In this document: piece by piece, positions 20,190-50,741 of the stretch
How the letters are laid out: each line of letters opens with the position of its first letter
How positions within the stretch are numbered: the stretch's first letter is position 1
Assembly (NCBI GenBank): GCA_050613775.1
Contig: JBODTK010000011.1
Location: 1,178,001-1,242,000, forward strand
DNA length: 64,000 nucleotides
Origin: Neocallimastix sp. 'constans'
Lineage: Eukaryota
Direction of reading: 5' to 3'
Program-made: the position numbers and the translations under genes
Notes under the pieces: model-generated
Databases searched by the model: none
What the model was told of the DNA's origin: nothing
What the model saw: the letters and a program-made list of their open reading frames with translations, nothing else

Positions 20190-21007
20190 TGTTAAGGTTT
20201 TAGAGAATTAAATAAAAATAAAAGTAAAAGACACACAAATTTTTTTATTTGTTTATTATTTTATTTATTAATTTTATTAAATTTATTTGATTATTTTTAA
20301 AAATTGGTAGCAAAATTTACAACTATTTATACTTTTTTTCAAGGCATAAAAGTTGTTCTTGCCACTAAATTTCATTTTATTTATTTTTTTTATAAAAACT
20401 ATTAAATTTAAATTGAATTTTATAATCAATTATATAAAATTTAATTATAACAATATAAATAAAATACATTTATAATATTAATAAAACCTTTTTTTTTATT
20501 TTATTTTATTTTTTTTTTAAAATATCTAAAATATTACTAATAAGAATTTATTTAATTGGCTATAATTTTTATTACAATCTGTTAAAATATTCAAATAAAA
20601 ATAAAAATACTATTCTAATATAAAGGTTTTTAATAAAATAAAATATTTTTCAATATAAAATAAAACATTTCGATATAAAATTTTATAATAAAAGTTAAAA
20701 TATAATATATAAATTTTTAATTATCAATATATAAAAATATTATTAATACAAATTTTCATTATTAATATAAAAATAAAAAAATAAGATTTATTATTAATAT
20801 TGCTAATATAAGTTTTAAATATATAAAAATATTACTATTAATATAAGATTTAATATAAAAATATAAAGTTTAATATAATTTTTGATTTAATTTTTGATCT
20901 TTGGATTTAAAAATTTATTAAAGTACAAAAATAATAATGTACACATAATGTATTAGAAATAAATCGTAGATTTAATTAAGAATGCATTATTTGGTACATT
21001 CTTATCA
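20190..21007 (-). mobile_element. 3' LTR of element D (family F)
   Basis: Minus strand reads tgataagaatg...aaccttaaca directly after pol; homologous to 34282-35005 and about 51810-52266. Confidence 0.85.
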
Positions 21008-21025
21008 AGATGCCCGGACGAAGAC

Positions 21026-22995
21026 TCAAGCTTCTCTGTAAGCGGAGTTAAACTTTACTAAATTTTTAAAGTGAACATTCCTATCGAGTTGCTTTCCAGT
21101 CTTCTGATCGATTAGGGTTGCCGTGTTGAATTGAATTTTTAAAATTTTAAATGGTCCATTGTAATATGGTTCTAGCTTAGTGCGACTAAAGTTTCTAACA
21201 AGAACAAGATCACCAGCCTTTAATTCTTTTCCTTTTTTCATACTTATTTGTTCTTCTCGTCTTGTTGCCCAATACTTGTTAGCATTCTTCACATTTTCGC
21301 ATGCTTCTCTAGTCCATTGATAATGACGAACAAATTTTTCAATTAAAATTTCATCATACGATTTACCTGCATTTTCAATTGTTCTTATGGCTATATTATA
21401 AGGCTGTTGGTCTTCTCTTCCATATACTAATTCAAAACTAGAATGTCCAGTAGCTGTGTTTTTGGTAGTTCGAAGTGCCCATAAAGCAGAAGGTAAAACT
21501 TCATCCCAATCTTGATTTTTCCTTCCTAATAAACGAAGTAATTTTCCAATTTCTTTGTTTCGATTTTCAGTAAGACCATTTGATTCAGGGTGGTAAGTAG
21601 CTACAAATTTAACATATACATCATAAAGATCAAGAAAGATTTTAGTCATATCAGAAGTGAATTGTACTCCATTATCAGTAGTAATAACTTGAGGCACACC
21701 ATGTCTTGCAAAAACGTTTATTAAAAATTTAATTATATCAGAGGAAGTTATGTTTTCAGTGGGTTCGGCTTCAACCCATTTGGTAAAGTAATCAACAGTT
21801 ACTATAATATATTGATTATTATTTCTTGTTTTTGGTAACGGTCCTATAATATCTAATCCTAAATGCACAAAGGGACCCTCTACTTTAGTCGGATGGTTTT
21901 CGGATGGTTCTGGATATGGTTGAGGACGATTTAACTGGCATTTTTCACAATTACTAACAATTCTTTTGATATCTTTAATCATATGATTCCAATAAAAGTT
22001 TTTCTTAAGTCTTTGATATGTTTTGTAATATCCTTCGTGGCCAATATTATGAGCTTCTAAAATTAATTTAAATTTTTCATTTTCATCCGTTATTAATTTT
22101 CTATAATTTCCATTGTCGATAAAGTAATCTTCACCATCAATAACAGTAAACTTTTCATTAATAAATTCCTTTATAACTTTAGATAATAATTCTTCATTAT
22201 TTCCATTAGTAATTTTTGTTAATAATATCTTTCTCTCTTCCTTACTTTTCATTCTTGAAAGAGCATCAGCTAACACATTCTTTTTGCCTGATTCATATTT
22301 TATATTAATTCCAAGCATACTAGTGGTTAGACACCATCTTGTTTGCCTTGCATTCAAAGGTTCTTTATTCTTAAATAAACCAACTAATGGTTTATGATCT
22401 GTGTAAATAGTTGTAGGTAATGGATTTCCTTCAATATAAGATTTAAATTTAGTCATACAGTAGAATAAAGCTGTTCCTTCCAAATCTGTGATACCATAAT
22501 TCTTTTCAGCTTTCTTCAAACTTCTACTTATAAAGTGTATTGGATGCTCCTTACCGGTTTCTTTCTTTTTGTAAAAGAACTCCACCAATTCCATTATACG
22601 AAGCATCAGTTCTAATGATAAAAGGTTTGTCAAATAACGGAAATTTTAGAATAGGTGAATTGATTAATTTTTTTTTTAGGAGTTCAAAGCTTTCTTGTTG
22701 TTCTTTATTCCATTCATATTTAGTATTCTTTTTCAATAATTTACATAAAGGTGAAGTAATTTGAGCATATTTAGGAATAAAGTCACGATAATATCCTACT
22801 GCTCCTAGAAATGATCTTAATTCATGAATTGATGAAGGGGCTTCCCACTTCTTAATAGCTGTTATTTTGCTTTCCATGGGACTTAATCCTTTAGTAGTAA
22901 GTTTGTGACCTAATACATCAACTTCAGTTTGAAGAAAATGGCACTTTTCAATATTAATTTTTAACTTGTTTTCTTTAAATACTTCTAATACTTGT
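21026..22995 (-). pseudogene. 5'-truncated, frameshifted pol of element D (close relative of element B)
   Basis: RT end, RNase H and integrase strongly similar to element B (ETGKEHPIHFISRSL, GPFVHLGLDIIGP); frameshift near 22560. Confidence 0.92.
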
Positions 22996-23690
22996 TTAAT
23001 AATAATTTAATAAAATAAAAAAATTAATTAATTAATTAATTAAAACAAATAAATTACACTTAAAAATTACATTAATACTCAGATATGAAAGAAATATTAT
23101 ATATTTTTCAAAATAAATATATTAAGATTAAATTTATAATAAAATAATTAGTTTTTATAATTAGTTTTATAATAATTTTTATAATTAATTTTATAATTAA
23201 ATAATAATTTTATAATAACAAAATTTATTAATTTAAATAACAAAATATTTTTAATTATTTTTATAATAAACAAATTTATTTATTTTATTATTAAATATTT
23301 ATTTTATAATTAATTTTATTACTTTTATTTTATTTAATTATTCTTTTTATTTATAAATTATAAATAGTTTATTTTTAAAGAAAAATATAAATGCTTGTAA
23401 ATATTTCATGTAAATATTATTATTATTATTATTATTAATTAATTTTATAATTTTAATAATCACTTTTAAATTTTATAATGTTTAATAAATTTTAATAAAA
23501 AAATTTATAAAATAAAATATTAGAAAACAAGTGTTCTAATAAATCAAATTTTTAGTGTTATTTTAAATAAAACATTTTTAATTCATAAATAACTTATACA
23601 GTTATTATTAAAATAAATTGAAATTATCACTTTTTAATTCTATATTAAAATTAAGATAATTTCTAAAATTTATCAGTTGCTTTGATAAAA
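22995..23690. repeat. Dispersed AT-rich repeat; inverted near-copy at about 63300-63990
   Basis: Shared strings such as taatactcagatatgaa, aagtgttctaataaatcaa and ataacttatacagttatt appear in opposite orientation. Confidence 0.8.
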
Positions 23691-24750
23691 TGTAATAATT
23701 ACCTTAATTTAGAAATTGTCCTAAAAGTGGTAATTGCTTATTAAAAGTATTTTATACCTTATTATTTATTAAATATTATCTATGATTATTTATTATTACT
23801 TATTATTATTTGTTATTATTTATTACTTTTTATTATTATTTATTATTATTTATTATTATTTCCTAGTTTAATAACTATTCTAATAATTATAAATTATTTT
23901 TATTAACTAAATTAATAATTATTTAATTATACACTAAATGAATTATCAATTTTCATATTTTATTAAATTTTTACTATTAAATATTTATTATTAACTTTAT
24001 TTATAATAATCTTATATAAAATAAGTTTTTATTAATTATTAATTATTTATTATAATAATTTTAAAGAATAAATTATTTTTACTATTAATCTATTCTAATA
24101 TTTCTAAACTATTCTAAATTATAGTTAAAATCTATAATTTTATTAAGCTATTTCATTTTATTTTTTTATTTAATTATAATGTAAAATAATTATTATTTAT
24201 CTTTATTAATTTTTATTAAATAATTATCTAATTTATTTTATTTATTTATTTTGGTTATTATTTATTATTTTATTAATTTAATAATTTAATAACAACGAAT
24301 AATAATTAAAAGAAATATTTACAAGTATTTATATTTTTACACGAATTTAAGGTATTTATAATATTAGTAAGAAAAGAAATTAAAAAATAAATATTTTTTT
24401 ATATTAAAAGAAATAAAAGAATAAATATATTATATTAAAAGAAATAAAAGAATAATTATATTTTATTATAGAAATAAAGGAATAATAAAGAAATAAAAGA
24501 ATAACAATAAAGAAAATTATATCGTTGATAAAAACAAGATTATTAAAAGTTATCTTTTAAAGTTATTATAATATTTTTCTTCTAAAAACACAATTTTTCT
24601 AGAAGATCAATTAATTTTTTTAATTTTAATTTTATTAAAGCAGAATTATTTAAGGTTCAGATAATTTTATCTTATTTAAGGTTAAAATTTAATTTTTAAA
24701 TAAATTTTATTATAATATTTGATTTTATAATTTCAATCTTCATCAATGAA

Positions 24751-25702
24751 TGATACGGGGTGTCACTAAATACCTTGTATTTCCTATTAAATACTCTTAA
24801 TAATAATAAAATAAAAAAATATTATTAAATCTTATTATTAAAATCTTCTATTAATACCAAATGTAATAAAAATATTATTAAATACTTTTATTAATTTCTT
24901 TTATTAATACTAAATATAATAAAAATTATTATTAAATATTCTTATTAAAATCTTTTATTAATATTAAATATAATAAAAATTATTATTAAATATTCTTATT
25001 AAAATCTTTTATTAATATCAAATATAATAAAAATTATTATTAAATATTCTTATTAAAAATTATATAAAATTTAAATCATTACTAATTCTTATTTTTATAC
25101 TAAGTGTAATAAAAACCTATTTCAATAAATATTTGATATAAAATACAGAAATTATAAGTTTCTGTATAATATTTTCTAAACCTTTGAAATAAACTAAAAA
25201 TAAAACAAAAATCAAAAATAAATTAAATCTTTATTAAAATAAAAATGAACTAAAATATAGAAGAATTTCAATAATAAAAATGATCTAAAATACAGAAAAT
25301 ATCAATTCTGTATAATTCTTTCTCTGAAAACAATATCAAGAAGAAGCTACCGCCCGGAATGCCCTTCGTGATACAATCTCCAAATTAATTTTTATTTAAT
25401 AAATGTTATTTTTTTTTTAAAAAAAAAGCAATTTAAAATAATAGTTAAAAATTAAAATAAAATAGTTATAATAGTTTTTTTTATAAAGAATATATTAATA
25501 ATAAATAAAATGTATTAAAATAAAAGTATAAAAAGAAGAATAAATTTCTTTCCTTTTAATACTGGAACAATTATTTTAATTTTAAATTTAAATAAAGAAT
25601 ATTTTAAAATTTAATTTTTTTTGTTTCCAAATTCATTTTTGTATGTTAATATTTATTTTTTTTTGTTTTGAATATCTTAGTGTTTCAACCCAAGCCGTAT
25701 CA
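24751..25702. mobile_element. Putative solo LTR or LTR composite (G type) with 54-bp tandem repeats
   Basis: Perfect 8-bp inverted termini tgatacgg...ccgtatca; possible second start at 25369. Confidence 0.55.
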
Positions 25703-25706
25703 CGCG

Positions 25707-26501
25707 TGATGCAATATGAATAGAAATAGTTATAATTAATAATATAATCCAATATTTTATTATATACTTAATATTCTAATTATACTATATTTAATTATAT
25801 TATATTATATTTATATTATTAATTTATATATTAAAACTAATTTATATTTATTAATATTTTCTAATAAATGATATATTTTTATTAATATTTAGATAAATAA
25901 TTCATATTTTAATTAAGATAATTTTTATAATATAAATAGTTTAAATAATGTTTATAGTAAAATTAATTAATAATTTATTTTTATAATTTTAATTATTACT
26001 AACTATTTTAATTGATTTTGATGTAATAATTTCATATAACTCAGTATTAATTTTTATATAAACAAATATTATTAATTAAAGTTGTGTAGAAAAATAAGAA
26101 AAGTACTTAAAAGTAGGAAAAGATAAATTAGAATGTGAAGAATTTATTGAAATTGTTAGTAATGATTAATTAGTTTTTATTATTATTATTTATTATTATT
26201 AGTTTTTAGTATTTTCTAGTATTATTTTAGTATTAATTAAGTAATGTATGGTTATAAATTTAAGTAATTATAAACTCATTTCTTTTGTTATGAAAATTTT
26301 ATGTAGAAAGTTAATAAAAATTATTTTATGTTTAAAAATATAACAAAAATAGCAAAAATAAATAAAAAGATAAATATAATAAATAAAATAATAAATAAAT
26401 AAAAAGTAAATATAATTATTGTAATATAATATTCTTGGAGTAATTCCCTTTTGCATAAACGCCCAATTAATATATATGGTATTTAATAAAATACTGTATC
26501 A
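25707..26501. mobile_element. Putative solo LTR (G type)
   Basis: tgatgca...tgtatca termini; 4-bp spacers on both sides. Confidence 0.55.
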
Positions 26502-26505
26502 GTTA

Positions 26506-27981
26506 TGTATAAGAATTTAGATTTATTTCTTGTAAAATAATCTATCTTCTTATTTAATTAATTTATATTTTATTTATATTTCAATATTTACTAATATGTA
26601 AAAAATATATTAATTTATTCAATTAATATATTGAGAAAATAATGTAAACAAATTTGTTGTAATGTATTAATTACTTAAAAATATTATCTATATTTTATTA
26701 TTTTAATTAGTTGATAATTTATAAGATTTTAGTAATCGGTTAATTAATTTTTTTCCAAATAATATTATGATTGGGTTTTTATTAATTAATATGATGATTA
26801 ATATATTAGAATATCAATCGAAGTTATTCAGGTTTTTCTACTAATCTTTTCCTGAATATCAATTTGTTAAGATTAGATACTTTTGATTTATTAATTTTAT
26901 CGTATCTATTTTATTTATTTAATAATTACATCTATTTAATAATCACATCTATTAAAATAATTATAAATAAAAAAGTATAAAAGAGCTCAAATTTCTTTGA
27001 TTAAAGAAATTAGAGTTATTATTATATAATGCTATATAATAAAAAGAAATAAAAATCTTTTATTTATGTCTATATTTAATGTTTATAATAAACTCTATAA
27101 GTAGAATCTCTGAAACAATATTTCGAGCGTACTCAAATTCCTCAATAGATAGTGATATCTATGATTTACATATTTCTATTGGTAGCAAAACTTTTAATGA
27201 ATATTTCAGAGTAATTGAAAAAGATGATATTTTTGATATCTTAATTGATGTCGATTCCATAAAGAATAATAGATTTGATATTACCTTAGTAGATGATACT
27301 TTATACTATATTGACGAAAATAATAGTTATTAAACTAGCAGATTTATTTTATGATATAAATCTAATACTTACAAGGGCGATGAAAATATAGAACATCTAA
27401 CTACAAAATCTGAACCTTTACTATTAACAATCACAGTCGCAAATGATGAAGAAATTAAAAATACTGATGATGTAACTAATACGAAATAATAGTTAATTAA
27501 CGAAATAATATCTTCTGCTCCTGGTAATTTTAAAAATGCAATTAGTAAAATTTTTTCTAAATTTAAAAATGTAATAGCAATCAAAACAGATGACTTAGGA
27601 AAGTCAAAATTGTTACCTCATAAGATCGATTTAATTCCCGGGTCTTGAGTTCTCTTTAAGAAATCAAGAGTTATTATTATAACGATTATAATAACAATTA
27701 TAATATAATAATAACTATTAAATATTTATATTTTTTATTTAATAAAGATAGTTTAATAATAAAATAAATTTTAAAATAAAAATTAAATAAATAAAAAATT
27801 TTCCTCGTAACGAATTGGTGTAACCTTTGGTATTTGTTTATTATAATTAAGTTATAATAAACTCTTCAATATTTAGATAAGTATAAATTTCTTATTTTAT
27901 TTTTCTCAATTTAATAATTATTATAAAGTTATAATTAGTTAATAATTTAATTATATTTAATTTAATAATTAAATTATTACA
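26506..27981 (+). mobile_element. Chimeric family S LTR containing a pol fragment
   Basis: S motifs gttaagattaga and agagttattatt (twice); ends attattaca. Confidence 0.7.
27095..27642 (+). pseudogene. Degenerate pol fragment (protease C-terminus to RT start)
   Basis: FRVIEKDDIFDILI and LGKSKLLPHKIDLIPG resemble the same region of elements B and E; internal stops. Confidence 0.75.
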
Positions 27982-29320
27982 TGTAAAAGGTAAGTTGATT
28001 ATTAACTAAAATAACGAATAATAACTAATTTTAAAGGCTAAGATAATTTAACACCTTTCTATTCGAGTTGTTAATAATAAACACTAAAATTAACTATAAT
28101 TATAATTATTTATCTCTATTACTCTAGAATATAGCGCAGCACTTTATAACTCTATTTGTTATTAGTTACTGGGCTTACACAGGGTAAATTTATTTATTTA
28201 ATAATTAAATTTTTATTTTTATATTAATATTTATTTTAACAATTTACATTAATAGTAACGCTAGTGCGTTACAGTTACAAGTTCAGTTATTTTTTATACA
28301 TGTTAATAATTTTATGATTGGTAAATAATTTAATTTAACTTAATTTACTAATCAACTAAATAAAATTATATTAAACTAAATATTTAACTATATAATTAAC
28401 TATAAAAATAAACTATAAAATAGTAAAATTAATGTACGAAATTTAAGAAAAGATTTTATTTGATTGACTGAAATTGATAACTGTTTAGAGATACGTTACG
28501 TAACCAAAGGACTATCATTGGATAGGCTTAAAGTTACCATGCATCTATTACAATTTATTGAGTTATGGTACGATTAAATAAAGAAAAATTAAACTATTTA
28601 AAGAAAATATTACAGTAAAAAATATTATTAACAATTATAAATAAATATTAAAAAAATTGAATATTAAAATATTAGTTATAGAATATTATAAAATTAAATA
28701 AAATATAAATAAATGTATTAAAAAATCATGTATTAATTATATTATATTATTTAATATTGTAAAACTTTTATAGAATATTTTAATAATTTAGAAATTTTAA
28801 GTTTATATTTTATTATTATATTTTTATATTTTTATTATTATATTTTTATTATTAAAATTTTTAATAAATTTTATTAAAATTTTATTATTAAATAAAATTT
28901 TTTTTATTTTTTTCTTAATCCAATCAAATAAATATTTTATTAGTATAAAAAAGAACAAAGTAACACAATACTTTAGTTCTCTCTCTTTTTTCTTACGACT
29001 TTATTATTATTATTTTTTTAATATTTTCTAAAAGATAAAATAATAAATTAAATAGTTTAAAATATATAAATATTTATTAAATAGTTTTTCTAAATTTAGT
29101 GTTCTTGAAGTGTTTAATTAGTAGTTTTTTTGAGTTTAGTTGTATAGTAGTAAGATAGTATAATATAAAAATTAGTTTAGTAATAGATTAGTTAGATTAA
29201 ACATTTTATAGATATAGCAATAGGTTTAGTGAAATTATTTAGTTTAGATTTGATTAGTTTAGATTAGGATATTAGTATAAGTTATTTTAATTTAGTTTAT
29301 ATTATTTTAGATTAGGACAG
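27982..29320 (+). mobile_element. Family K LTR, 3' end lost or diverged
   Basis: Starts tgtaaaaggt; homologous to 39711-41090 (gtaacgctagtgcgttac, ccaatcaaat...tataaaaaagaac). Confidence 0.8.
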
Positions 29321-29324
29321 TTTA

Positions 29325-29899
29325 GACTAAGATTATATTAATAATTTCAATTGTCTACATATGACATCACATGTATTTATTTTATTATGTTTATACATAT
29401 GTTTACATCATATATATTAACTACTATTTTTAATTATTCAAATTAATTATATAATTACAAATTGCATTTATTTAGTTATATTAAATATTTTAAACATATC
29501 GATATTGTTATTATCTTAATATTTTATTAATATTCATTTTACTATATTATTAATATCTTATAATTAAATACTATTATTATGTAACTTACAAAGTATAAAA
29601 GAAAGATGTAAAAATCTATCTTTTATGTTCTTTGTAAGGTTATTGTGTTTGCATTAATTATATACTAATAATTCAACTTTTATTAAAATAAATAGATCTT
29701 TTTTATAAATCTTCAAAAAAATTATTGCTTAAATTATTCTTTAAATATTAAGTGTTTAAATAATTTAATTAATTATCTTATTTTATTTAATTATCAATTT
29801 ATTATTAATTAATTATTGTTGGATTATTAATATATAAATCAACATATTAATCTAGTTACGTTATTAATTATAAAGCTATTTTATATCTTAATTTTAACA
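29325..29899 (+). mobile_element. Partial family N LTR
   Basis: Reverse-complement match to 50801-51350; ends ttttaaca. Confidence 0.75.
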
Positions 29900-32070
29900 A
29901 AAAAAAATAATATCACGGTACAAATTTTATAAAGTTTAATAATAAACAATTAATAAATTAATAAAAATAAAAATATATTAAAAATATTTTAATAATAATA
30001 AATGTATAATAAACAATGAACAGAAATAATAATTTTTAAAATATTATTAATTATAACATGTAAACAAATTTTAAAATGTATAATTTACTAAATTAATATA
30101 AATATTTCTTAATTTTATTTATTTTAATAATCAGATTTTTATATAGTTTTTACTCATTCTAATCATAAATTAAATATTAATAATAATATTAAATAATTAA
30201 AATAATAATTTAAATTATAAAATTAAAAGATGTATTTAAAATAATTTATAAAATAAATAAAATATATATTAATAAAATTCTTAATCATAAAAACAACTTT
30301 TTTCTAAATTTATTTATTGATATTGGTTATATCACTTTCTGAGCCTATTCAGAATTGAGATATAAACCATAAATATCATTTTTGATAAATAACGAAATTA
30401 TAAAATTAAAATAAATAATAAATAATAAATTCTTATTTAACTTAACCTATTAGAAATCTTGAAATCAATTTAAGAAAATTAATTAAAAGAAATAAATGAA
30501 AATAAAATAATAATAATCTAATTAATTATTAACAATTTTAATTAAAACTAAAACAAATTAATTAATTTTCTTCTAAAATTACAAATAAACAAAATAATAA
30601 ACAAATTTAATAAATTGTAAATAATAAATAAACAAACTTATAAACATTTCAAAATTAAAATTAAATAGTTAAATAATCCTCAAATTACTTTTATTTAAAA
30701 TAATTAATATTTTATTTATTTTATAACAAAACTTTTATAAACAAATTATAATTAAAACTTTTTTATTTTAATACTTTATTTGTAAGTATTTATAACAATT
30801 ATTTATTTTATTGTTTATAAATGTAAATAGTTTAAAATCATTGAAAATATAAAAACATGTAAAATATTTCATATAAATTATTCTTTATTATTAATAATTT
30901 CAATAAATTATTTTATATATTTTATTAGTTTATTAATTGTTAATAATCAAATTTTATTTTTAAAATTTAAATAAATTATGATAAATAATAAATAATTTTA
31001 TTTTATTATTTTATTAGTTTTAATAATCACTTTTCTGTTATTAATTTAAATAAAATTAATTATTAAATAAATAAAGATTAATATTTAAAATAAAAAAATC
31101 TTTTTAATAAAACAATTTGTGTTTAATAATAAAACATATTTATTTTTAAATTTATTAATTTTTTCTTATTTGTTTTAGTATTTATACTTTTATTCACTTC
31201 TACAAAATTTAATTTTTGTAGATTAAGAATAACAGGTATAAATCATTTTTGGTAAAGAACGAATATATAATGGATTATTAATTAGAATTTCAACTTACTT
31301 TAGAATCCATTATATTGTTCTTTACTTAATATTACTTTACTATATTTTCTATACTAAATTATTTTATAAATATATTTTTTTTATATTTTTATTAAAAAGT
31401 TACTAAAATATTATCAATAATTCTATATTTTTATTATTAATATCAATATCTAATATAACCTTAAATTTTATTATTTTATTAAAGTGTTTATTATCAATAT
31501 TAATATTTTATCTTTATTTTCAAATATATTATTATATTATTATTATATTTTATCAATATTAAAATTGTATTCTTTTTAGTATTTTATTTTATTTTTAAAT
31601 TGATTATTTAATTTATAAATATTTTTATTCCCGACAAATAAAATCAAATCTTAATTGATTAATAATAAATATTAAATATATTATAGTTTTTAAATTTATA
31701 TTCTTGATTAAACTAACTTTATTTTTCTGTAAAGCCTTTTTAAATTTTGTTTGTTTCTTTTCGTATATATTAAATAATTTAGTTTTAGTATATGAAAAAT
31801 AATATAAAATTATATAAACAAATTTATTAAAATAAAAATACTTATGAATTAGTTAATTTAAATTAATATAAAATTTGAAGAAATTAGTAATAGTAAATTA
31901 TTTTTTTTTAAATATGATGATAAAATGTAGAAAGGCTTTACATATTTATTTTTTTCAAAAAGTATAAATAAGTGAAGTTTTTCAATAATTAAAATGTAGA
32001 CAGACAAAAACAAAAAAAAAATAAATAATTAAATAAAAATATTTCTAATAAACCCGAACCATAACAATTG

Positions 32071-32590
32071 TGATAAAGAATAAAATAATAATGATATATT
32101 TAACATATATTCTTAATAATTTATTATATAAAAATATATTATTATATTCTTTACTATTAATAATTTTCTTATATTTTATATAATAATTTTTATATTAATT
32201 ATATTTTATAATTTTAAATATTAATTTATGTAATTAATTAATTTATATGATTGGATTTAATAATGTAATTAAATAATATAAAAAATATGTATAATCCATA
32301 TTTATTATGAGGGGGGCCTTTCTGAGGAAAGAATTAGTAGAAATAATAGTGAAAATGAAATAGGAATAATAATTGAAAGGTTTCCCATATTGTTATAAAA
32401 ATAAATATTAATATTAATAAAGTTAGTTTTAACAATAAAATAATTATATAATTTATAAATAAAATATTTTTAATAATAATTCTTTAAATAAAATTCATAA
32501 TGTGTAGTAATAATTTCTTTAGTGTAATTTAGTTAGTTAATTTATCTACTTATTAATGTTCACACTCCTTTTACAATATGAACCTCAACA
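32071..32590 (+). mobile_element. Solo LTR, family F
   Basis: tgataaagaat...aacctcaaca flanked by attg on both sides. Confidence 0.75.
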
Positions 32591-32594
32591 ATTG

Positions 32595-33365
32595 TGTAAA
32601 AGGTAAGTTTATTATTAACAAAAATAACAAATAATAATTAATTTTAAAGACTAACTTAACACCCCTCTATTGGAATTGTTAATAATAAACACTAGAATTA
32701 ATTATAATTATAATTATTTATTATTAAATTTTTATTATTAAATTTTTATTATTAAATTTTTATTATTAAATTTTTATTATTAAATCTAGTCCAATCAAAT
32801 AACTGTTTTAATTGTATAAAAAGAACAAAGTAGTACAATACTTTAGTTCTTTCTCTCTTTTTCTTACAACTACAACTTTATTATTGTATTATTCTTTTGT
32901 TATTTTAGAGTTAAATAATAAATTAAATAGTTAAATTGAAATAAAATTAGTTTAAATAATTAAATAAAATTAGTTTAAATAATTAAATAAAATTAGTTTA
33001 AATAATTAAATTAGAATAGTTAAATAATTAAATTAGAATAGTTCAAATAATAAAATTAGTATAGATTAAATAATAAAAATAAAATAGTTTAGTTTAAATA
33101 AAATTAAATTAAAAATAATTTGAATGTTGTTTTTAAGTGTTTTAAGATTTTATGTTTAATGTTTAGAGTTAATAATTATTGTTGAATAATTAGATTATTT
33201 AGATTAGGTTTGAAATTATTTTTAGTTATTTTAGTATAGTTAAATTATTTAATATTTAGATTTTTAAATTAGAATAATAAATTAGAATAATAAAATAGAA
33301 TATAAAATTTTCTTTAGTTATTAGAATATATTATTTTATTATTAAAACTCTTCAAGACTGTACCA
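32595..33365 (+). mobile_element. Solo LTR, family K (internally deleted)
   Basis: tgtaaaaggt...ctgtacca, same termini as 39711-41090. Confidence 0.8.
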
Positions 33366-33370
33366 TTGTG

Positions 33371-34278
33371 TGTTAGAAATTGAAATAAAAATTCTATTAT
33401 AGCAATTTCTAATCCACAATTTTATTTTAATAATAATATTATTAACTAAAATTGGGAAATTTTAAATTTGTTTTATTAAAAAAATCGAGTTTATTATAAG
33501 AAAATTTAATTTATTTATTTATTTAATTTATTTTATTTTTTTAAAAAAAATAAATAAAAATTATTTTAAAATAAAAAAAAAATAATAATATTATTATTAT
33601 TATTTAAATTATAAAATTTTATTGTTATTATTATTTTTCTTATAATAATAACTCTTAATTTCATAAAAAGAACTTAAGAGTCTCTATTTATACTTTTACA
33701 AAATTTTAAATTAAATATTGTCTAATCTTAACAAATTTCTTATTTAGGAAAAGATTAGAAGAAAAACCTAAATAAGTTTCGATTAATATTCTAAACATAT
33801 TTATCATCGGATCATATATGTAAAATCGATACCAATCAGTATTCGGGAAAACCTTAAAGATCGATTTTCTAATTACTTTTATAATAAATAATTCTAATTA
33901 AATGTCCAAAATGATAAATAAAAAAAATTAAAAATTGAATAAATTTGTTCAAATTTAGAAAAAAAAAATTTTTTTTTTGTTATGAAAAATTTTAAATAAT
34001 TTTTGATTACATCTAAAATGTCCAAAAATTTAAATAATAATTCTAACGAATAAATTATTGAATAATATTAATTAATTATTAATAATTAAGTTTAACTAAT
34101 AATTGGTTAACTACTCCTAATTTTTAAATAATTTTACATGTAATAGTTATTGTACATCGTTACAAAACAAATAACGATAATGTAAAAATAATGTATTTCT
34201 AATTATTAATTTTTAATATATTAATACATAATAAGAAATAATAATTATAATTTAAAATTTTATTATTATTTCTTACAT
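33371..34278 (-). mobile_element. Solo LTR, family S
   Basis: Reverse S motifs aataataactctt and tctaatcttaacaa; TSD ttgtg. Confidence 0.8.
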
Positions 34279-34281
34279 TGT

Positions 34282-35005
34282 GTTAAGGTTTAGGGAATTA
34301 AATAAAAACAATAAGTAAATATACAAATTTTATTTATTTATTTATTTATTTATTATTTTTTTTATTAATTTATTAATTAATTGATTAATTAATTTTATTA
34401 AAATTGGTAGCAAAATTTACAACTATTTATACTTTTTTTAAGGCATAAAAATTGTTCTTGCCACTAAATTTTATATTATTACATTTTTTTTATAAAAACT
34501 ATTAAATTTAAATGTTAATTCTGATACCTTTCTAAGTAGTATCACCTTATGTGTAATATAATTATATGTGAAAAAAAGTTTAAAAGCAAAACACAATAAC
34601 TAATAAGTTACACTTTTGTATGATAAAAATAAAAGATTTTATATTTTATTTATTATTGATTTATTTTATTTATTAATTATATAATATTATAATTTTATTA
34701 TTTAATAATATATTTTTTATTTGATAATATAAAGTATTAATAATATTAGTATTATAGAAAAACTTATTAATTATATTTGTTTTTATGAATAAGAAACCGT
34801 TATTCAATCTATAACTATATATCAACAAGTTTTTCAAAAGTAAAACAAAGATTAAAATATTTAAGAAAATTTTTGATTTAATTTTTGATATTTGAATTTA
34901 AAAATTTATTAAAGTACAAAAATAATAATGTACACATAATATATTAGAAATAAATCATAAATTTAATTAAGAATTAAGAATGCATTATTTAGTACATTCT
35001 TATCA
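34282..35005 (-). mobile_element. Solo LTR, family F
   Basis: Both ends homologous to 20190-21007. Confidence 0.8.
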
Positions 35006-35011
35006 AATGTT

Positions 35012-36762
35012 TGTAATAATCTTACTAAGTACTATTACTTAATATGATTATTAATTTCATCTTAACGACTAATTCATTAAGTTGAGAAAATAAAATAATT
35101 TTATACCTGAATCGACTTTATTATAAACTTAATTATAATAATATCAATGCACAAAAATAGAAGAATGTTTAGATAAAGTTTATTTGTAAAATATTTTTTT
35201 ATTAGAAATTATTTTAATATTTATTTAAAGATAAAAATATAAATTATTATTATTATAAATAGGTTTTTATAATAATAACTCTTGATTTCTTAAAGAGAAC
35301 TCAAGAGCCTTATTTATTATAAAGTGTTTTATGATAAAACAGATTATAATAATACAAAAACACTATTATAAATAAATTCTTTTTTATTAAAAATATTTGG
35401 TTTATTAAAAATCTTTTATTAAATAGTTCTTATTATGTTATGAACTATCAAATTATAAAAAATAACAATTACATTTTTTCAATTAAAGAAAATTTACAAT
35501 ATTTATATTTTTTTCTTAATTATATTCTAATATATTAAATTAATTTAATTTACATATATTCAATTTAAATATTAATAATAATTAATTTTATAAAATAATA
35601 AAATATTTAAACTAAAACTAATTATAGTATAATTTTCTAATTAACTATTTTTTATTATAACTATTTTTTATTATAACTATTTTTTATTATAACTATTTAA
35701 ATATTTTAACTAATTTAAAATTAAACTAAAAACTATTAATAATATTATATTATACTATTTAAATAAATAAAAATTTAACAATAACAGATTTGGCGAATTT
35801 TTTGTAACTAAATTATTTAATTTCATATTTAATAAATATAAATTTAAATAATTTAAGTTCTAATTTATAATTTTAAATTTCAATTATTAATTTAAGGAGA
35901 AATAATTGTTTAAAGTATTTAATTCATGTACGTAAATTTGATGTATGATTTTTCGTTTACATAAATTTATTGAAATACGCTTTAATTCATAAATTAATGT
36001 AAATTACATAATTTTATTCAAGATATCGTGGAAAAAATTTCATACATAAATTAATATAATAATGAATTACATAAATTTATTAAAGATATAAAGATATCTT
36101 TACATTTATATTTTTTTAAGAAAATAAGGTTAAATAAAAAAGGTTTTCTAATCTTAACAAATTTCTTATCTAGAAAAAGACTAGAAGAAAAAACTAGATA
36201 AGTTTCGATCAGTATTCTATTCATATTGATCATCGTATATTATAAGTAAAACCAAATATATTATAATACTTGGATAAAACCTTAAAAAAACGATTTTCTA
36301 TTTTTTAATTTAGATCATCAAATAAAAGGGAAAATAAATAATAACCGAATCTGATCTAAATTAATCTAATTTTCAAAATATCATTAAAATCTAATCTAAG
36401 CTTATAAATATAACACTATCTTTTAAACTAAAATATAAAATTATACAAATATAGAAACTTATTAATTATTTCTTTAAATGTACAATGTAAAAATAAATAA
36501 AAATAATGTTTTACATTAAATTAATAATTAAGTGAATAATTTAAATAAATTGTTAATATTAATAAGTGTATAAATAATAATTATTTAATTAAATCTTCTA
36601 ATATTATTTAAGTGTATGAATAATTATAATATTAATAAATTTGATAATAATATTTCAATGTATGAATTAGTTATAATTTAAATAAATTTATAATTATTAT
36701 CAATAATTATAAAGACTAAGAAATAATAATTATTTATTAGTAAATAATTATTATTTCTTACA
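35012..36762 (-). mobile_element. Solo LTR, family S (subtype S1) with a ~0.75-kb AT-rich insertion
   Basis: Collinear with 48232-49171 except for extra sequence at about 35315-36100. Confidence 0.8.
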
Positions 36763-36765
36763 TGT

Positions 36766-37740
36766 TGATAAAGAATGCTCAAATAATGTTCTTTTTGTTA
36801 TTCATCCTAAATGATTCATTTAACCCACAAATTATTTGATTCTTTGTTCTTTCTTTTGGAACTTTCTATATTCTAATAAATTAATCTATATTCCTGGTTA
36901 GTACAAATTAAATTATACTATTTAAAAGAATATTTAATATTAATTTCTTATCTATGCTACCTTTATTATTCTTATCAATATTTTATTATTATTAAAATCC
37001 TTATCAATATTATATAGTTTATTTTATCAATTTTTTTTAGTTTATCAAAATCTTATCAATATTTCTTTTATTAATATTAAACTTATCAATATTAGTTATT
37101 TCTTTGGAAAATTCCAAATTAAAAAAATTGTATTAATGATTACTAATAAAAATTAAACATAAAAGAAAATAGTTATACTATTATTATATGTTTTATTATA
37201 AATATTATATTATAAATTATAAATTTGATGAAATTATAAATTTTATATTAACAATTTAAATAATAATATTTTTCTAAACATAGTAAAATTAAACTTTAAG
37301 ATTAAATAAATATTACTAAACCACTGAATTAACTTCTGTAAAATAAAAAAAATGTCTTTTAAAGTATATAATTAAGTAGATTAGTAATAAATAATTAGTA
37401 ATAGATTAATATATAAGTATTATTTATTATAAATTAAATAATAATTATATTAATAATAAAAAAATAATATAAAATATTTAATAATAGTTAATTTTCATTA
37501 TACAAAGATATGACTTTACCATTTCTATTATTTTAAGAAAAAGTATAAATAACAGTAAAAAAAAATAGTAATTTTTATATTGTAATTTTCTTAATATTGT
37601 AATTTTTAATAAAAATTTAATAAAAGATTTATAAAATAAAAAATTATAAAATTATTATTTTATTATTTTTCTTTTTCATTAATTTCTTTTTATTGTTTAT
37701 ATTATTACTTATTTTTATTTTCCCTCTCCGAACCTAAACA
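36766..37740 (+). mobile_element. Solo LTR, family F
   Basis: tgataaagaatg...ccgaacctaaaca. Confidence 0.7.
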
Positions 37741-37746
37741 TGTTGT

Positions 37747-38719
37747 TGTAAGAAATATTAATTATTTATTAATAAATAATTAATATTTCTTAGTCTTTAT
37801 AATTATTAATAATAATTATAAATTTATTTAAATTATTAATATTGCATACATTGAAATATTATATCTAACTTTATTAAAAAATATAATTTTTATATATTTA
37901 ATTAATATTTGGAAATTTATTTAAATAATTATTATATATACATTTATTAATATTATCAATTCATTTAGTCATTCATTTAATTATTAATTTAATGTAAACA
38001 TTACTTTTATTTATTTTTTATATTTTTTACATTGTACATTTAAAAGAATAATCAATAGGTTTCTGTATTTTCTATAATTCTATATTTTAGTTTAAAGATA
38101 GTTTTATGTTAATAAGCTTAGATTAGATTGTAATAATAATAATATTTGGAAAATTAGATTAATTTAGATCATTTCGGTTATTATTTATTTTTCCTTTTAT
38201 TTGATGATCTAAATTAAAATTTAAAAAATCGGTATTTTAAGGTTTTATCCAAATATATAATTATATATTTGGTTTTCACTTAAAATATACAATGATCAAT
38301 ATGAATAGAATATCGATCAAAACTTATCTAGTTTTTTCTTCTAATATTTTTCTGGATAAGAGATTTGTTAAGATTAGAAAACCTTTTTTATTTAACCTTA
38401 TTTTCTTAAAAAATATAAATAAGGCTAGTTCTCTTTAAGAAATCAAGAGTTATTATTATAAAAACCTATTTATAATAATAATAATTTATATTTTTATCTT
38501 TAAATAAATAATAAAATAATTTCTAATAAAAATATTTTACAAATAAATTTTATCTAAACATTCTTCTATTTTTGTGCAGTGTTATTATTATAATTAAGTT
38601 TATAATAAACTCGATTCAGGTATAAAATTATTTTACTTTATTTTCTCAACTTAATGAATTAGTCGTTAAGTTGAAATTAATAATGATATTAAATAATAGT
38701 ACTTAGTATGATTATTACA
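37747..38719 (+). mobile_element. Solo LTR, family S (S1)
   Basis: tgtaagaaat...attattaca; TSD gttgt; inverted homolog of 48232-49171. Confidence 0.85.
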
Positions 38720-38721
38720 GT

Positions 38722-39708
38722 TGTAAGAAATCATAATTATTCAATAATGAATGATTAATATTTCTTATAATTAATGAAAAATCATTAATAATTTATAATT
38801 ATTTATAAAATAATAATTATTTTTTAAAAATATTTATTTAAATAATAATCAATATATTCATTGATTTTAACTTATAAATTTATTTAATAGTTATATTTTC
38901 ATATATTGATCTAAATTTATTTACATATTATAATTTATACATTTATATAAATAATATAAAATTTATTTGCTTATTATTACTATTCATTTAAATAGAATTT
39001 TTACAAAAGATTATGTAAATTTGTATTTAATATTTTACCATAAAAATAAAATTATGTATTTTATAATGTATTATAAACTATAAATGTATCTAATCTATCA
39101 TATTATTTAATTTTTTTTTTAAATAAAAAAAAAAAAAATTCTTTTTTTTTTTTTATTAATTCCTATCCTATCATTATTTAATATTTTAATAATTAATTAG
39201 AAAATCGGAAATTAATGTTTTTCCAGCAAATTGATTTTCTTTAATTATACGATGATCAAAATGATTAGAATTTTGATCGAAAAACTATTTAGGTTTTTCT
39301 TCCAATCTTTTCCTAAATAGATTTTTTGTTAAGATTAGAAAATAAATTTATTTAACCGATTGATTTTTTTGAAAAAATATAAATAGGACTATTGAATTCT
39401 CTTTGAGAAATCATTATTATTTTAAGAAAATATAATAAATAATAACTAATAAAATAAATTTTATATTTATATATCAAAAAATTATTATTAATCATAAAAG
39501 CTTTTTTTTTAAAATATTTTCAACTACTATTCTACTATTGATGGTTATTGTTTATTATATTTACTTATAATAAACTCTACGTAATTATTAAGTATAATTT
39601 AAATTTTTTAATTTTTATTATTTCAATTTTAATATTATGTAAAAAATAATATTAAAATTGTAGATAATAGTTATATTAACTAATTTTAGTTTTAGAATAG
39701 CTATTACA
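38722..39708 (+). mobile_element. Solo LTR, family S (S2)
   Basis: tgtaagaaatcat...ctattaca; inverted homolog of 49177-50184. Confidence 0.85.
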
Positions 39709-41097
39709 ATTGTAAAAGGTCGGTTTATTATTAACTAAAATAACGAATAACAATTAATTTAAAGGCTAAGATAATTTAACACCTCTCTATTCGAGTTATT
39801 AAAATAAACACTAAAATTAATTATAATTATCTTTTTGAAATACTTAAGAATATAGCGCAGCACTTTTAACTCTATTCGTTATTAGTTACTGGGCTTATAC
39901 TAAGATATTTTATTTATTTTAATAATTAATTTTTATTTATTAATATTAATATTTATTTATAACAATTTACATTAATAGTAACGCTAGTGCGTTACAGTTA
40001 CAAGTACTGTTATTTTTATACATGCAAATAATTTAAATATTGGTAAAATACTTTAAATTAACATAATTTACTAATCTATTAATAAAACAAATTATAACTA
40101 TATAACTATTAATATAATAACTATAAAAATAATAAAATTTAACGTACGAAATTGAAATAAAGATTTTATTTGATTAGCTGTAATTGCTAACTGTTTATAG
40201 ATACATTACGTAACTAGAGAACTATCATTGGATAGGCTTAATGTTACCATGTATCTGTTACATTTATTTTATGTTACGATACAAATAATATATAAAAAAT
40301 AAGTAAAATTAAATAAACTATTAAGAATAATTAATAAATAAATAATAATAAAATATTAAAGTATTAAAATATATAATGAAATTAAAAAGTGTATAAATAA
40401 CTAAATTATTTAAAATAATGTATTAATTGTATTTATTTAATATTGTAATAGTAAACAATTAGATATTTTATTATAAATAATTAAAATTATATTTATTATT
40501 ATTTTATGTTTTTATTATAAAATTTTTATTATACTTTATTATATTTTTATTATTATCTTATATTAAATATTATATCAAAATTATATTTTATTACATTTTA
40601 TTATTATAATATTATTAATTTTTGTTATTATATTTTATATTTCTATTTTTACTCCAATCAAATAAATGTTTTAAATATATAAAAAGAACAAAGTAACACA
40701 ATACTTTAGTTCTTCCTCTTCTTTCAATTTTATTTTTATACTATTCTTTTAATTTTTCTAGAATGAATTATTAAATATTTTTAATTAGTATAATTAAATA
40801 ATTAAATAAATAAATAAAACTAAATTATTCTCTTATTAAATTGATTAGTTTTTTTTTTTTTTTTTTTTTTTTTTGTGTTTTTATTACGGTTAAGAATAAA
40901 AATAATTTTTGTTTGTTTTAAGATATTCAGATTGTTAGGTAAATTAGTTATATTTTAGAGATAAATTTATTAAATTATTTAAATTATTTACATTAGAATA
41001 GTTAATATAATATTTATTTTTGTTAAAGGAAAATTAAATTTTACTTATTAGAATATATTATTTTTTTATATTATTTTCAATTCTGTACCATAAATCT

Positions 41098-41115
41098 TGG
41101 CGAGCTATGCAGGAC
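41098..41115 (+). promoter_or_regulatory. tRNA primer binding site, probably tRNA-Arg
   Basis: tggcgagctatgcaggac is the complement of a tRNA-like 3' end gtcctgcatagctcgCCA, 7 nt after the LTR end; tRNA identity is from recall, not a search. Confidence 0.7.
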
Positions 41116-46199: not shown

Positions 46200-46562
46200 T
46201 TCACTATTTTTTTTTTTTTTTGCACCTCAATTATTGCGAATTTTATGCATTATTTTATTATTTATTTTTTCTTTTTTTGAACTTAGACTTTAATAAATTT
46301 ATTTAATTTATAATAATAATAAAATTACGTGATTTAAATGAAAATGAAAAAAATAAAATATATGAAATAAAATATAATATATTATTATAATTATAAAAAG
46401 TGCGTTAGAAGCAATAGTTTCTAACTATTGCCCATTCTTCAATAAATAACACCACGTCCATTATTGCGAGTAATAATTTCATAAGTTATTCCTTTTCCGT
46501 CACCTGGGCAAACAGTTAACATCATTGGGGAGGTATAAAATTGTAAAATGAAACATTAACTA

Positions 46563-46763: not shown

Positions 46764-46845
46764 CGTCACCTGCAGGACTCGAACCTGCGCTCCCAAAGGG
46801 AAATGGCTTAGCAGGCCACCGCGTTAACCACTCCGCCAAAGTGAC
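46764..46845 (-). tRNA. tRNA-Ser(GCT)
   Basis: Cloverleaf: acceptor GTCACTT/AGGTGAC plus G, anticodon arm GTGGC-CTGCTAA-GCCAT, long variable arm TCCC-TTT-GGGA, T arm GCAGG-TTCGAGT-CCTGC; 82 nt. Confidence 0.97.
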
Positions 46846-46861
46846 TATCATAAATTCATTG

Positions 46862-47646
46862 TGTAAGAAATTGATATAAATTTTTATAATTTATTTCTAT
46901 TTCTTATTAATTAATAATTATTTCATAATTATTATTCTTTAAAAAAATTTATTTCATTTAAAAACAATTATACCAATTAATGTATTAATTGTTATATGAA
47001 AAAATGTATTTAATATAACTTCTGTATTATTTCATAGAAAAAATGTATTTAATAATTTCTGCATTATTTTATCCTTCTCTTTTTTATCCTTTTTCTTTTT
47101 AATTCTTTTAGTTATTAAAATCGGTTATTAAAGTTTTTCCGATTAATTATAATTGGTTTTATTTAATAACACGATGATCAATAAGTATAGATTATTGATC
47201 AAAAATCTTTCCAGTTTTTTCTTCTAATCTTTTTCTGGAAAGAATCATTGTTAAGATTAGAAAAATACATTTATTTTTGTAAAAATATAAATAGCTGTTG
47301 ATTTTCGTCTTTAGAAAATCAAGAGTTATTATTTTAAGAAAAATATAATAATAATAAAAGACATTAATATTCCAATTAATATAAAATAGTTATTTTAAAA
47401 TTTGTCAAAAAAATAATAAAATATTTAATAATAAAATAGATTAATAAAGTTCTTTTGATAAAAACATATTTTATTTCTCTTTCATTTAAGGTCTATTATA
47501 TTTTCTTATAATAAGCTCTAATTTTAAAGATAAGTATTAAATTCTTATTTTTATTTTAATTTTTATTTTAATTTTTTTTTAATCTTAATAGTTTAGTTAA
47601 TATTAATTATAAATAATAATCTCTATAATTTATAGAAATTATTACA
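46862..47646 (+). mobile_element. Solo LTR, family S, 16 bp upstream of the tRNA
   Basis: tgtaagaaat...attattaca with S motifs (gttaagattaga, caagagttattatt). Confidence 0.85.
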
Positions 47647-47649
47647 CTG

Positions 47650-48220
47650 TGATAAAGAATGAAAATTAAAAATTAAAAATAATTATAAAACGGAATTTAA
47701 AAATAATAAATAATTAAATTATAATAAAGTAATTAATTTTTAGATTATAAACATTTAAATTATAAAAATATTAAATATTTAAATAATACACAATTAATAA
47801 TAATTAGATTAAAATAATATAAAATAAACAATAATTGTTTATTTAATTATTTATTATTAATAGTTAATTTATTATTTATAAACAGAGTATAAATATAAAA
47901 ATTAATATAAATAGAAATAAAAATTAATAGTTTTAAAAATTGTTCCTAATTAGCCATTATAAAAATTAGATAATATTAATAATAATATTTTAAAATGATT
48001 ATTTTTAATAAATTATAATTTTAATAAAACAAAATGTATTAATGAATCAATAACTAATTGATTTACTTATTTTAAGTTACTCAATAAAATATTAAAATAA
48101 AATTAAAATTACTTTTATCCTTTTTTTTTAATTAACTAGTATATCTAGTTATATTTGAACATGAGAATAAAGACTTTTAGTAAGAAATTACTAAATTAAC
48201 TTTATTTTCAATCTGTATCA
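47650..48220 (+). mobile_element. Solo LTR with an F-like start and a G-like end
   Basis: tgataaagaatg...caatctgtatca. Confidence 0.6.
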
Positions 48221-48231
48221 TAAATTCTGTA

Positions 48232-49171
48232 TGTAATAATCATACTAAGTTCTATCACTAAATATGATTATTAACTTCAACTTAATGACTAATTCATTAA
48301 GTTGAGAAATAAAATAAAAATAAAAATTTTACCTAAAAACGAGTTTATTATAAAATTAATTATAATAACAACACAAAAAGTAAAAGAAGGAATATTTGAA
48401 TAAATTTGGTTTAAAAAATATGTTTTTGAATAAAATGTTTTATTAATTTATTAAAGTTTAAAATATAAAATTGTTATTATTATAACTATATTTTTATAAT
48501 AATAACTCTTGATTTCTTAAAGAGAAATCAAGAGCCCTTTTTATATTTTTTTATTAAATTAAGGTTAAATAAAAAGTTTTAAAAATTATCTTATCTAGAA
48601 AAAGATTAGAAGAAAAAACTAGATAAGTTTTGATCGATATTCTATTCATATAGATCATCGTATATATTAAGTAAAACCAAATATATTATTTTATATTTGG
48701 ATAAAACCTTAATATATCGATTTTCTAAATTTTAATTTAGATCATCAAATAAAATGAAAAATAAATAATAACCGGAATGATCTAAATTATTCTATTTTTC
48801 TAAATATTATTTTTAAAATCTAATCTAAACTTATTAACATAAAACTATCTTTAAAAAATACAGAAACTTATTAATTGTTCTTTTAAATGTACAATGTACA
48901 AAATAAATAAAACTAATGTTTACATTAACTTGATAATTAAATGAATAACTAAATAAAATTAATAATATTAATAAAAGAATATATAATAGTTATTTAAATA
49001 AATTTTTTAATATTATTTTAGTGTATGAATAATTATATTTTTAATAAATTTGATAATAATATTTCAATGTATGAATTAATTATAATTTAAATAAATTTAT
49101 AATTATTATCAATAATTATAAAGACTAAGAAATAGTAATTATTTATTAATAAATAATTATTATTTCTTACA
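48232..49171 (-). mobile_element. Solo LTR, family S (S1)
   Basis: Inverted homolog of 37747-38719; flanks ctgta / ctcta. Confidence 0.85.
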
Positions 49172-49176
49172 CTCTA

Positions 49177-50184
49177 TGTAATAGCTATACTAAAACTAAA
49201 ATTAATTAATATAACTATTATCTACAACTTTAATATTATTTTTACATAATATAAAAATTGAGAAAAAAAAATTAAAAAAAAATAAAAATTATACTTAATT
49301 ATGTGGAGTTTATTATAAGTAAATATAATAAACAATAACTCAGTAGGTAAATTAGTAGTTGGAAATATTTAAAAAAAGCTTTTATGATTAATAATATTTT
49401 TTTTTGATATATAAATTTAAAATTTATTTTATTTGTTATTATTTATTATATTTTCTTAAAATAATAACTCTTGATTTCTCAAAGAGAATTCAAGAGTCCT
49501 ATTTATATTTTTTAAAAAATTAATCGGTTAAATAAATTTATTTTCTAATCTTAACAAAAAATCTATTTAGGAAAAGATTAGAAGAAAAACCTAAATAGTT
49601 TTTCGATCAATATTCTAATCATATTGATCATCGTATAATTAAAGAAAACCTATTTGTTAGGAAAAACATTAATTACCGATTTTCTAATTAATTATAAAAT
49701 ATTAAATATTGATAGGATAGGAATTAATAAAAAAAAAGATTTTTTTTTTTTTTTTTTTATTTAAAAAATAAAGATTAAATAATATGATAGATTAGATACA
49801 TTTATAGTTTATAATACATTATAAAATACATAATTCATTTTAATTAAAATAACTAATATTTTTATGGTAAAATATTAAATACAAATTTACATAATTTTTT
49901 GTAAAAATTCTATTTAAATGAATAATAATAATAAGTAAATAAATTTTATATTATTTATATAAATGTATAAATTATAATATGCAAATAAATTTAAATCAAT
50001 ATATGAAAATATAACTATTAAATAAATTTATAAGTTAAAATCAATGAATATATTAATTATTATTTAAATAAATAATTATTTAAAAATAATTATTATTTTA
50101 TAAATAATTATAAATTATTAATTATTTTTCATTAATTATAAGAAATATTAATTATTCATTATTGAATAATTATGATTTCTTACA
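49177..50184 (-). mobile_element. Solo LTR, family S (S2)
   Basis: Inverted homolog of 38722-39708; flanks ctcta / ctgta. Confidence 0.85.
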
Positions 50185-50185
50185 C

Positions 50186-50741
50186 TGTAAAAGGTACGTT
50201 TATTATTAACTAAAATAACGAATAATAACTAAATCTAAAGGCTAAGATAACTTAACACCTCTCTATTCGAGTTGTTAATAATAAACACTAAATTAATTAA
50301 TTCAATAACTATTATTTCTTATTACACTAGAATATAGCGCAGCACTTTATAACTTTATTTGTTATCAGTTGCTGGGCTTACACTGAGTAATATATTTTAT
50401 TTAATAATAATATTTTACTTATTAATATTAATATTTTTATCAACAATTTACGTTAATAGTAACGCTAGTGCGTTACAGTTACAAGTTCAATTATTATTTA
50501 TACATGTCAATAATATTATGATTGGTAAATAATTTAATTTATCTTAGTTTACTAATCACTAAATAAAATATATTTAAATAAGTATTTAACTATATAATTA
50601 ATTATAAAATAATAAAATTTAATGTACGAAATTAACAAAAGATTTTATTTGATTAGCCAAAATTGCTAGCTGTTTAGAGATACGTTACGTAACCAAAGAG
50701 CTATCATTGGATAGGCTTGAAGTTACCATGTATCTGTTACA
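50186..50741 (+). mobile_element. Short family K LTR
   Basis: Matches 39711-40262; ends tgttaca. Confidence 0.8.

Follow-up and report, generated by a model that had tools for sequence, protein, structure and literature searches.

Yeasts and amoebae are the hosts for which a published overview (PMC5911963, Table 1) records targeting of tRNA genes by Ty3-type retrotransposons. Ty3-type elements are placed 15-17 bp from the tRNA 5' end (PMC5014426), and the site ruler of Ty3 in Saccharomyces cerevisiae is described as a vestigial chromodomain which follows the SH3 domain and contacts Brf1 (bioRxiv 2021.07.27.453949). DGLT-A of Dictyostelium discoideum, also a Ty3/gypsy element, is reported 13-33 bp upstream of tRNA genes, with a mean of 15 (PMC5006619, PMC5911963), its targeting being attributed to a contact of RNase H with the TFIIIC subunit Tfc4 (PMC6101501). 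Tj1 of Schizosaccharomyces japonicus, a Tf1-related, self-priming element, is given as inserting 1-10 bp upstream of Pol III (RNA polymerase III) start sites and as clustering with tRNA genes in repeat-rich regions (PMC4600332). Here we consider a window of 64,000 nucleotides from the anaerobic gut fungus Neocallimastix sp. 'constans' (contig JBODTK010000011.1, positions 1,178,001 to 1,242,000), in which long terminal repeats (LTRs) of Ty3/gypsy elements abut one another in a stack. This stack is a one-directional pile of solo LTRs, and we think it probable that repeated Ty3-like insertion just upstream of a tRNA gene produced it and that LTR recombination later split it off from that gene.

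The stack, at 31250-41090, is 11 abutting LTR units (Table 1) and is longer than first described. The initial annotation had counted nine; the stack it saw is real, and all nine spacers it listed (attg, attg, ttgtg, ttg, aatgtt, tgt, tgttgt, gt and at) and the three target-site duplications (TSDs) it named, at E1, E3 and E7, are in the sequence, but its last unit is two LTRs (of the B and C families), a further LTR ends at 32066, and E2 is a fused pair. TG...CA termini and short TSDs are present in the stack units, with the qualifications that E2 is fused and that E5 and E6 are one base short. At the left end, E0 terminates in 12 bases identical at 12/12 positions to 11352-11363, the end of the 3' LTR 10300-11363, and its start word resembles the start of a 3' LTR at a related locus (L005). 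Our comparison with public contigs spans 31900-32750, that is 851 of about 9,000 stack bases, in 4 of 21 runs; many animal faeces metagenomes are among the sequencing runs that contain the stack. E0, E1 and the start of the B family are high-copy repeats in these contigs, and records cease matching at 32066 (where X3 record 17, which follows E0 up to that base, diverges) and at the two termini of E1, 32071 and 32590. At the right end, E10C leads through a 7-nucleotide leader into a primer-binding site, an arrangement matching that of three related loci (L002, L003 and L008). T5, a relative of E9B in a neighbouring stack, stops at the same place as E9B and is followed there by aattc, a word also found to the left of T5 once T3 and T4 have been undone. 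The alignment of B and C with a copy at 27982-29327 continues through the joint between them, which leaves a small chance that 39711-41090 is a single compound B-C LTR rather than two LTRs.

We undid insertions with a script that removed a unit together with one TSD copy, the TSD being 5 nucleotides for the S and B families and 4 for the rest; relaxed rules tolerated one mismatch or one missing base, and TSD lengths and rules were fixed after inspection of the data. Under the relaxed rules eight of the nine inner units could be undone at a total cost of 4, the remaining unit being E9B, whose left TSD copy is gone. None of 3000 pooled-letter shuffles and none of 3000 background draws reached eight, the best result being seven, obtained once in each. 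With exact TSDs only, three units could be undone, a number reached in 2/3000 shuffles and 0/3000 background draws. When E1 to E8 are undone from the left their cuts fall at offsets of 0, 1, 1, 0, 2, 2, 3 and 0, all eight within 0-3, and insertion was restricted to a few bases, every cut lying at most 4 bases from a fixed left reference. LTRs of other families are nested within elements, with 5-nucleotide TSDs of their own, in four of the five cases tested; the fifth lay beyond the range of coordinates used.

Repeated insertion at a single point, with the newer elements leftward, is thereby supported. There are 37,800 optimal undo paths, and all of them place E3 after E4, each of E5, E6 and E7 after E8, and E1 to E8 after E9B. 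The initial proposal, in which every element is younger than the one to its right, consequently stands for these relations but not for five neighbouring pairs (E1/E2, E2/E3, E4/E5, E5/E6 and E6/E7), the order of which is not set by TSDs. In the three best paths printed, the TSD takes in bases of the right neighbour in four of eight cases (E3/E4, E5/E6, E7/E8 and E8/E9B) and of the left neighbour in none. The overlapped end is U3 in E6, E8 and E9B and U5 in the inverted E4, and because it may be either, the direction of overlap is not set by the LTRs. This bears directly upon the alternative that the integrases recognise an existing LTR edge, or a rebuilt attg/tgt word, and that the stack grows without any Pol III gene. 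Such recognition would suit a stack which has no anchor, in which all cuts lie a few bases from an LTR terminus and in which the site word stays near attgt; however, the overlaps run rightward only in the printed paths, whichever LTR end the neighbour shows, and where these families recur, in a stack that starts 16 nucleotides from a tRNA, the words are different (ctgta, aattc, ctttg and tttg). We accordingly regard this alternative, of which the initial annotation had raised the LTR-end form, as disfavoured and quite improbable.

That second stack adjoins the sole tRNA gene of the window, the tRNA-Ser(GCT) of Table 1 (ARAGORN including introns, default threshold; lowered thresholds yielded noise only beyond this gene), and its first LTR begins 16 nucleotides upstream of the tRNA 5' end. 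The two stacks were said to have the same polarity, and they do, with newer elements to the left and rightward TSD overlaps in both (T4/T5 and T9/T10 in the tRNA stack). They also share families, the identities, gaps excluded, being 0.896 for E7/T3, 0.894 for E5/T3, 0.954 for E8/T4 and 0.875 for E9B/T5. The order S1-A-B is common to both; T3 and T4 point the opposite way to E7 and E8, and B does not, so that the two stacks must have received separate insertions despite the common order. This shared order, and the recurrence of B followed by C at 27982-29327 with a similar spacer, could suggest that the array arose from the tRNA stack by segmental duplication, or else through unequal crossing-over, but with the inversion confined to T3 and T4, differing spacers and a TSD proper to each unit, this is largely refuted and we give it hardly any credence; for the B-C pair alone it may still hold.

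The tRNA-Ser stack runs on (46862-63304 and beyond) to the right end of the window, T5 to T10 being interspersed with nested elements, and the TSD of T9, tttg, takes in the TG of T10, with the same polarity. A run of twelve bases, tatcataaattc, is shared by the tRNA-Ser 5' flank (46846-46857) and the 3' end of T2 with its spacer (48216-48227); tatcataaattc also resembles an LTR end plus the 7-nucleotide leader of the tRNA-primed clade, and joining driven by microhomology is possible. A second copy of 9 bases from the 3' end of tRNA-Ser, perhaps a remnant, lies at 46498-46506, 266 bases left of the gene.

If a Pol III gene fixed the insertion point of the E stack, where is that gene? The initial annotation predicted it to the left, and neither Rfam, ARAGORN, B-box nor GC checks found one: there is no tRNA and no Rfam RNA within 23000-32100 (0 matches at E up to 10), no B-box-like match within 25700-32066, and no GC-rich island beside the stack, the best 75-mer in 29900-32066 having 25% GC relative to 60% for the tRNA. 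Nor can it simply be placed beyond the edge of the window, since 31 kb of other elements stand between. A very improbable alternative is that a different factor bound to the DNA serves as anchor, or that a Pol III unit (5S, U6, signal recognition particle RNA, short interspersed element or TFIIIC site) has decayed past recognition to the left of the stack. Tj1 is stated to use 5S genes as well (PMC5911963) and divergent RNAs can escape Rfam, but the DNA left of 32067 is the end of an LTR, and the GC and B-box results count against this possibility too.

We consider it likely, instead, that the anchor was cut away by LTR-LTR recombination or by a misjoin. The unit preceding E0 has tttt on both flanks; E0 itself has mismatched flanks, the trace to be expected of an exchange between LTRs of different arrays or of a misjoin in the assembly. 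Support that arrays have recombined in this region can be found in T6 (50752-51811), which matches the 3' LTR 17841-18827 at 361/363 positions, shares its CTTTG flank although 30 kb apart, and agrees with the 3' LTR of element 11370-18819 wherever that LTR differs from its 5' LTR, a likeness that points to recombination or duplication between arrays. That the stack was built by tRNA targeting but lost its anchor because the assembly is misjoined within E0, an LTR of very high copy number, is improbable, if less so than the other alternatives: the summed contig depth over the 3' part of E0 is in the tens of thousands, relative to 4 to 10 for single short X1 contigs, and the flanks of E0 mismatch, yet rearranged joints elsewhere in the window (that of T6 with the LTR at 17841, and truncated elements) suggest a truly recombining locus, and the way in which the TSDs of the stack fit together base by base could not result from misassembly.

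Under the preferred explanation, insertion beside a tRNA gene followed by loss of that gene, TFIIIB/TFIIIC on a Pol III gene to the left would have set a constant distance at which each new element landed, older copies would have been pushed rightward by each insertion, the inserted elements would have collapsed to solo LTRs, and an exchange within the high-copy LTR E0 would have swapped the tRNA side for the flank of another array. We favour it because of the undoing of TSDs and its nulls, the cut offsets of 0-3, the rightward overlaps, and the families shared with a stack that starts 16 nucleotides from a tRNA. Was the lost anchor the tRNA-Ser locus (46764-46861) itself, or a paralogue? We treat this as a lead only, and a doubtful one: the local chance of ATTG at the end of the tRNA-Ser flank, at that position, is 0.005, and the flank predicts TTCAT for the TSD of E9B, for which TTTAT is observed. 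T2 had been considered as the reciprocal partner of E0 and was dropped, there being no homology and no match between flanks.

Several observations weigh against this explanation. The anchor gene is not present, and the E stack has no Pol III gene at about 12-20 bases from its insertion site; the case for Pol III targeting is made by analogy with one tRNA locus of this window, tRNA-Ser, from which the same families lie 16 nucleotides away. E2, E5 and E6 fit only with a TSD one base short, E4 only with one mismatch, and T1, which adjoins the tRNA, has flanks that differ at two of five bases. No age gradient is shown: E8, old by order, is 95% like T4, and E4 is 83-86% like its nearest relatives in the window. 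Pairwise identity was, however, rejected as a measure of age, as relatives in the window are not source copies, and it is uninformative either way. Finally, public contigs cover 851 stack bases, and the exact 87-nucleotide contig that crosses the E0/E1 joint has 16 letters on its E0 side, below the 31-letter reliability rule of the tool. A further contig, of run X1, joining 32066 to 32595 (22-letter side, depth 5), would fit an allele lacking E1; it too is below the reliability limit and perhaps comes from another locus. In a contig of run X3 an E1-type end (32590) is joined to an E1-type start (32073) across six letters, which hints at abutting LTRs elsewhere or in other isolates.

Table 1. 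Units of the stack and associated features, in window coordinates.
Feature	Position	Strand	Description
E0	31250..32066	+	LTR, tRNA-primed clade; well defined at its 3' end, provisional at its 5' start; flanks mismatch (left tttt, right attg)
E1 (earlier F)	32071..32590	+	Solo LTR; 4-nucleotide TSD attg/attg
E2	32595..33365	+	Fused LTR, about 130 nucleotides of B-family start plus C-family end; without full-length TSD
E3 (earlier S)	33371..34277	-	Solo LTR of the self-primed clade; TSD ttgtg/ttgtg takes in TG (2 nucleotides) of E4
E4	34281..35005	-	Solo LTR, relative of 3' LTR 20190-21008; TSD attg/aatg
E5	35012..36762	-	Solo LTR, S1 family; TSD tgtt takes in first T of E6
Nested solo LTR of a different family	35318..36104	.	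Inside E5; TSD tttat/tttat; internal control for a family not targeting junctions
E6	36766..37740	+	Solo LTR of the tRNA-primed clade; duplication of just 3 nucleotides, tgt
E7 (earlier S1)	37747..38719	+	Solo LTR; TSD gttgt/gttgt takes in TGT (3 nucleotides) of E8
E8	38722..39708	+	Solo LTR, A family; TSD attgt takes in TGT of E9B, visible once E1-E7 are undone
E9B	39711..40262	+	Solo LTR, B family; relative is T5 (50186-50741)
E10C	40272..41090	+	5' LTR of a decayed Ty3/gypsy element; oldest stack position
Primer-binding site	41098..41115	+	After 7-nucleotide leader; opens decayed internal region (gag, protease and reverse transcriptase pieces to about 46200)
tRNA-Ser(GCT)	46764-46845	-	Anchors the adjoining stack, in which these families recur; 16-nucleotide 5' flank ends in attg, the site word here

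Which elements supplied the LTRs? Judging from LTR homology, through which open reading frames (ORFs) are tied to the stack indirectly, two integrase lineages are the apparent source. The first is tRNA-primed and makes 4-nucleotide TSDs (ORFs 1-1839, 6044-10276 and 21026-22645); the second, the S clade, is Tf1-like and self-primed and makes 5-nucleotide TSDs (ORF 13623-17831). A gag-pol element whose LTR pair is 11370-12368/17841-18819 provides the alignment partners of E3, E5, E7 and E8, and the 3' LTR 20190-21008 that of E4, the LTRs in both cases being homologous to those of elements ordered reverse transcriptase (RT)-RNase H-integrase. E0, E1 and E6 are tied to the 3' LTR 10300-11363 by terminal words only, and no coding element is linked to the B family. 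The S-clade element 11370-18819 has a 12-nucleotide self-priming match at 12081 and an SH3_Tf2-1 domain, and the motif is found also in E3, E5, E7, T1, T3 and T4, an exact match being absent in E8, E9B and T5.

Both integrase types have Ty3 Gag-Pol as their best solved match, and both end within about 10 residues of the end of that match (Ty3 residues 1444-1447 of 1547). Because both lineages end where the match does, the vestigial chromodomain of Ty3 is without counterpart, and no such C-terminal domain follows SH3 in ORF 16974-17831 or in alignment A1, both of which end at the SH3 region. All four close relatives of the S integrase that were fetched end at SH3 as well; many distant relatives carry a chromodomain, the distant P0011, for instance, continuing into one. 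The chromodomain-bearing element in the window is nested, not stacked. Its two LTRs (53530-53600 and 59500-59570) have A-box-like and B-box-like motifs at tRNA spacing, for which Helenus and Ajax may offer a comparison; the tRNA-like A/B-box stretch in the LTR at 53498 has no tRNA match in Rfam. In the tRNA-primed clade 4-8 bases separate the 5' LTR from the primer-binding site (41091-41097 here; L002, L003, L006 and L008), a leader longer than the two bases given for Tyl3 (PMC5014426), and its integrase would therefore seem to process 3' ends in an unusual way.

The rest of the window is of a similar nature, GC content per 2-kb bin being 10-39% (about 13% in the stack) and every Pfam-matched long ORF except one being a piece of Ty3/gypsy gag-pol. 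A third array without an anchor, with the site word cttt, occupies 3170-23006, full-length elements with long open ORFs lying to its left and a solo LTR and a truncated element to its right, which fits a newer-left polarity. More abutting LTRs, with other spacer words (cgcg, gtta and tttt) and a pol fragment within an S-clade LTR, fill 23676-31245; among them an S-B-C run at 27640-29327 parallels E8-E9B-E10C, and a GC-rich piece of 27 bases between two LTRs (25343-25369) bears a faint likeness to a primer-binding site or tRNA fragment. Within the window nhmmer found no relative for 29900-32066, E1, E6 or T2 (20 queries, the last one incomplete). A search with the integrase alignment returned 80 loci, of which about 10, all short internal contigs, are close relatives and were used for LTR ends and leaders; none of the 80 contains a tRNA gene. 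Local alignment of LTR ends against L001-L010 gave mainly low-complexity noise and was discarded. The 20-nucleotide motif of the B family had 0 loci in viral and 0 in metagenome contigs, and the S-clade RT had 0 loci in viral contigs.

The literature that we searched, which consisted mostly of abstracts, contains no report of tRNA targeting or of LTR piles in anaerobic fungi. The mechanism is known; what is new is the depth of the pile, the two lineages without chromodomain, the host group and the orphaned state. A broader claim, to which we would give an even chance, is that two Ty3/gypsy lineages of anaerobic gut fungi without the chromodomain ruler target the same few bases upstream of tRNA genes, that one-directional LTR piles record the order of family activity, and that recombination between piles strips anchors and builds tens of kb of repeat-rich genome. 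If true, an early-diverging fungus with two such lineages would represent another independent solution to targeting and, being compact, a system in which the host contact could be sought. Where an array contains at least 10 LTRs, it is a base-level record of family activity and could date waves of transposons in genomes so rich in AT that divergence is a poor clock, and an orphaned pile shows how arrays can lose their anchor and mask the targeting rule.

How does this locus compare with the described systems? The distance of 16 nucleotides at tRNA-Ser fits both the 15-17 bp given for Ty3-type elements and the 13-33 bp given for DGLT-A. Relative to Ty3/sigma (S. cerevisiae, and Tyl3 and Tyl6 of Yarrowia), however, the integrases of the window end before the chromodomain, several families contribute to a pile of 11 units, and the TSDs of one clade are 4 nucleotides long. 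The S-clade element is like Tj1 in its self-priming match and its SH3_Tf2-1 domain, a likeness of features rather than of position in a tree; unlike here, ordered piles of solo LTRs are not among what is described for Tj1 in PMC4600332, and its host is a fission yeast rather than a gut fungus. DGLT-A shows that targeting need not follow the route of Ty3, although its host is an amoeba and its window of insertion is wider. By analogy, then, the RNase H-Tfc4 contact of DGLT-A and Tj1 would be the nearest precedents for the elements that built this pile.

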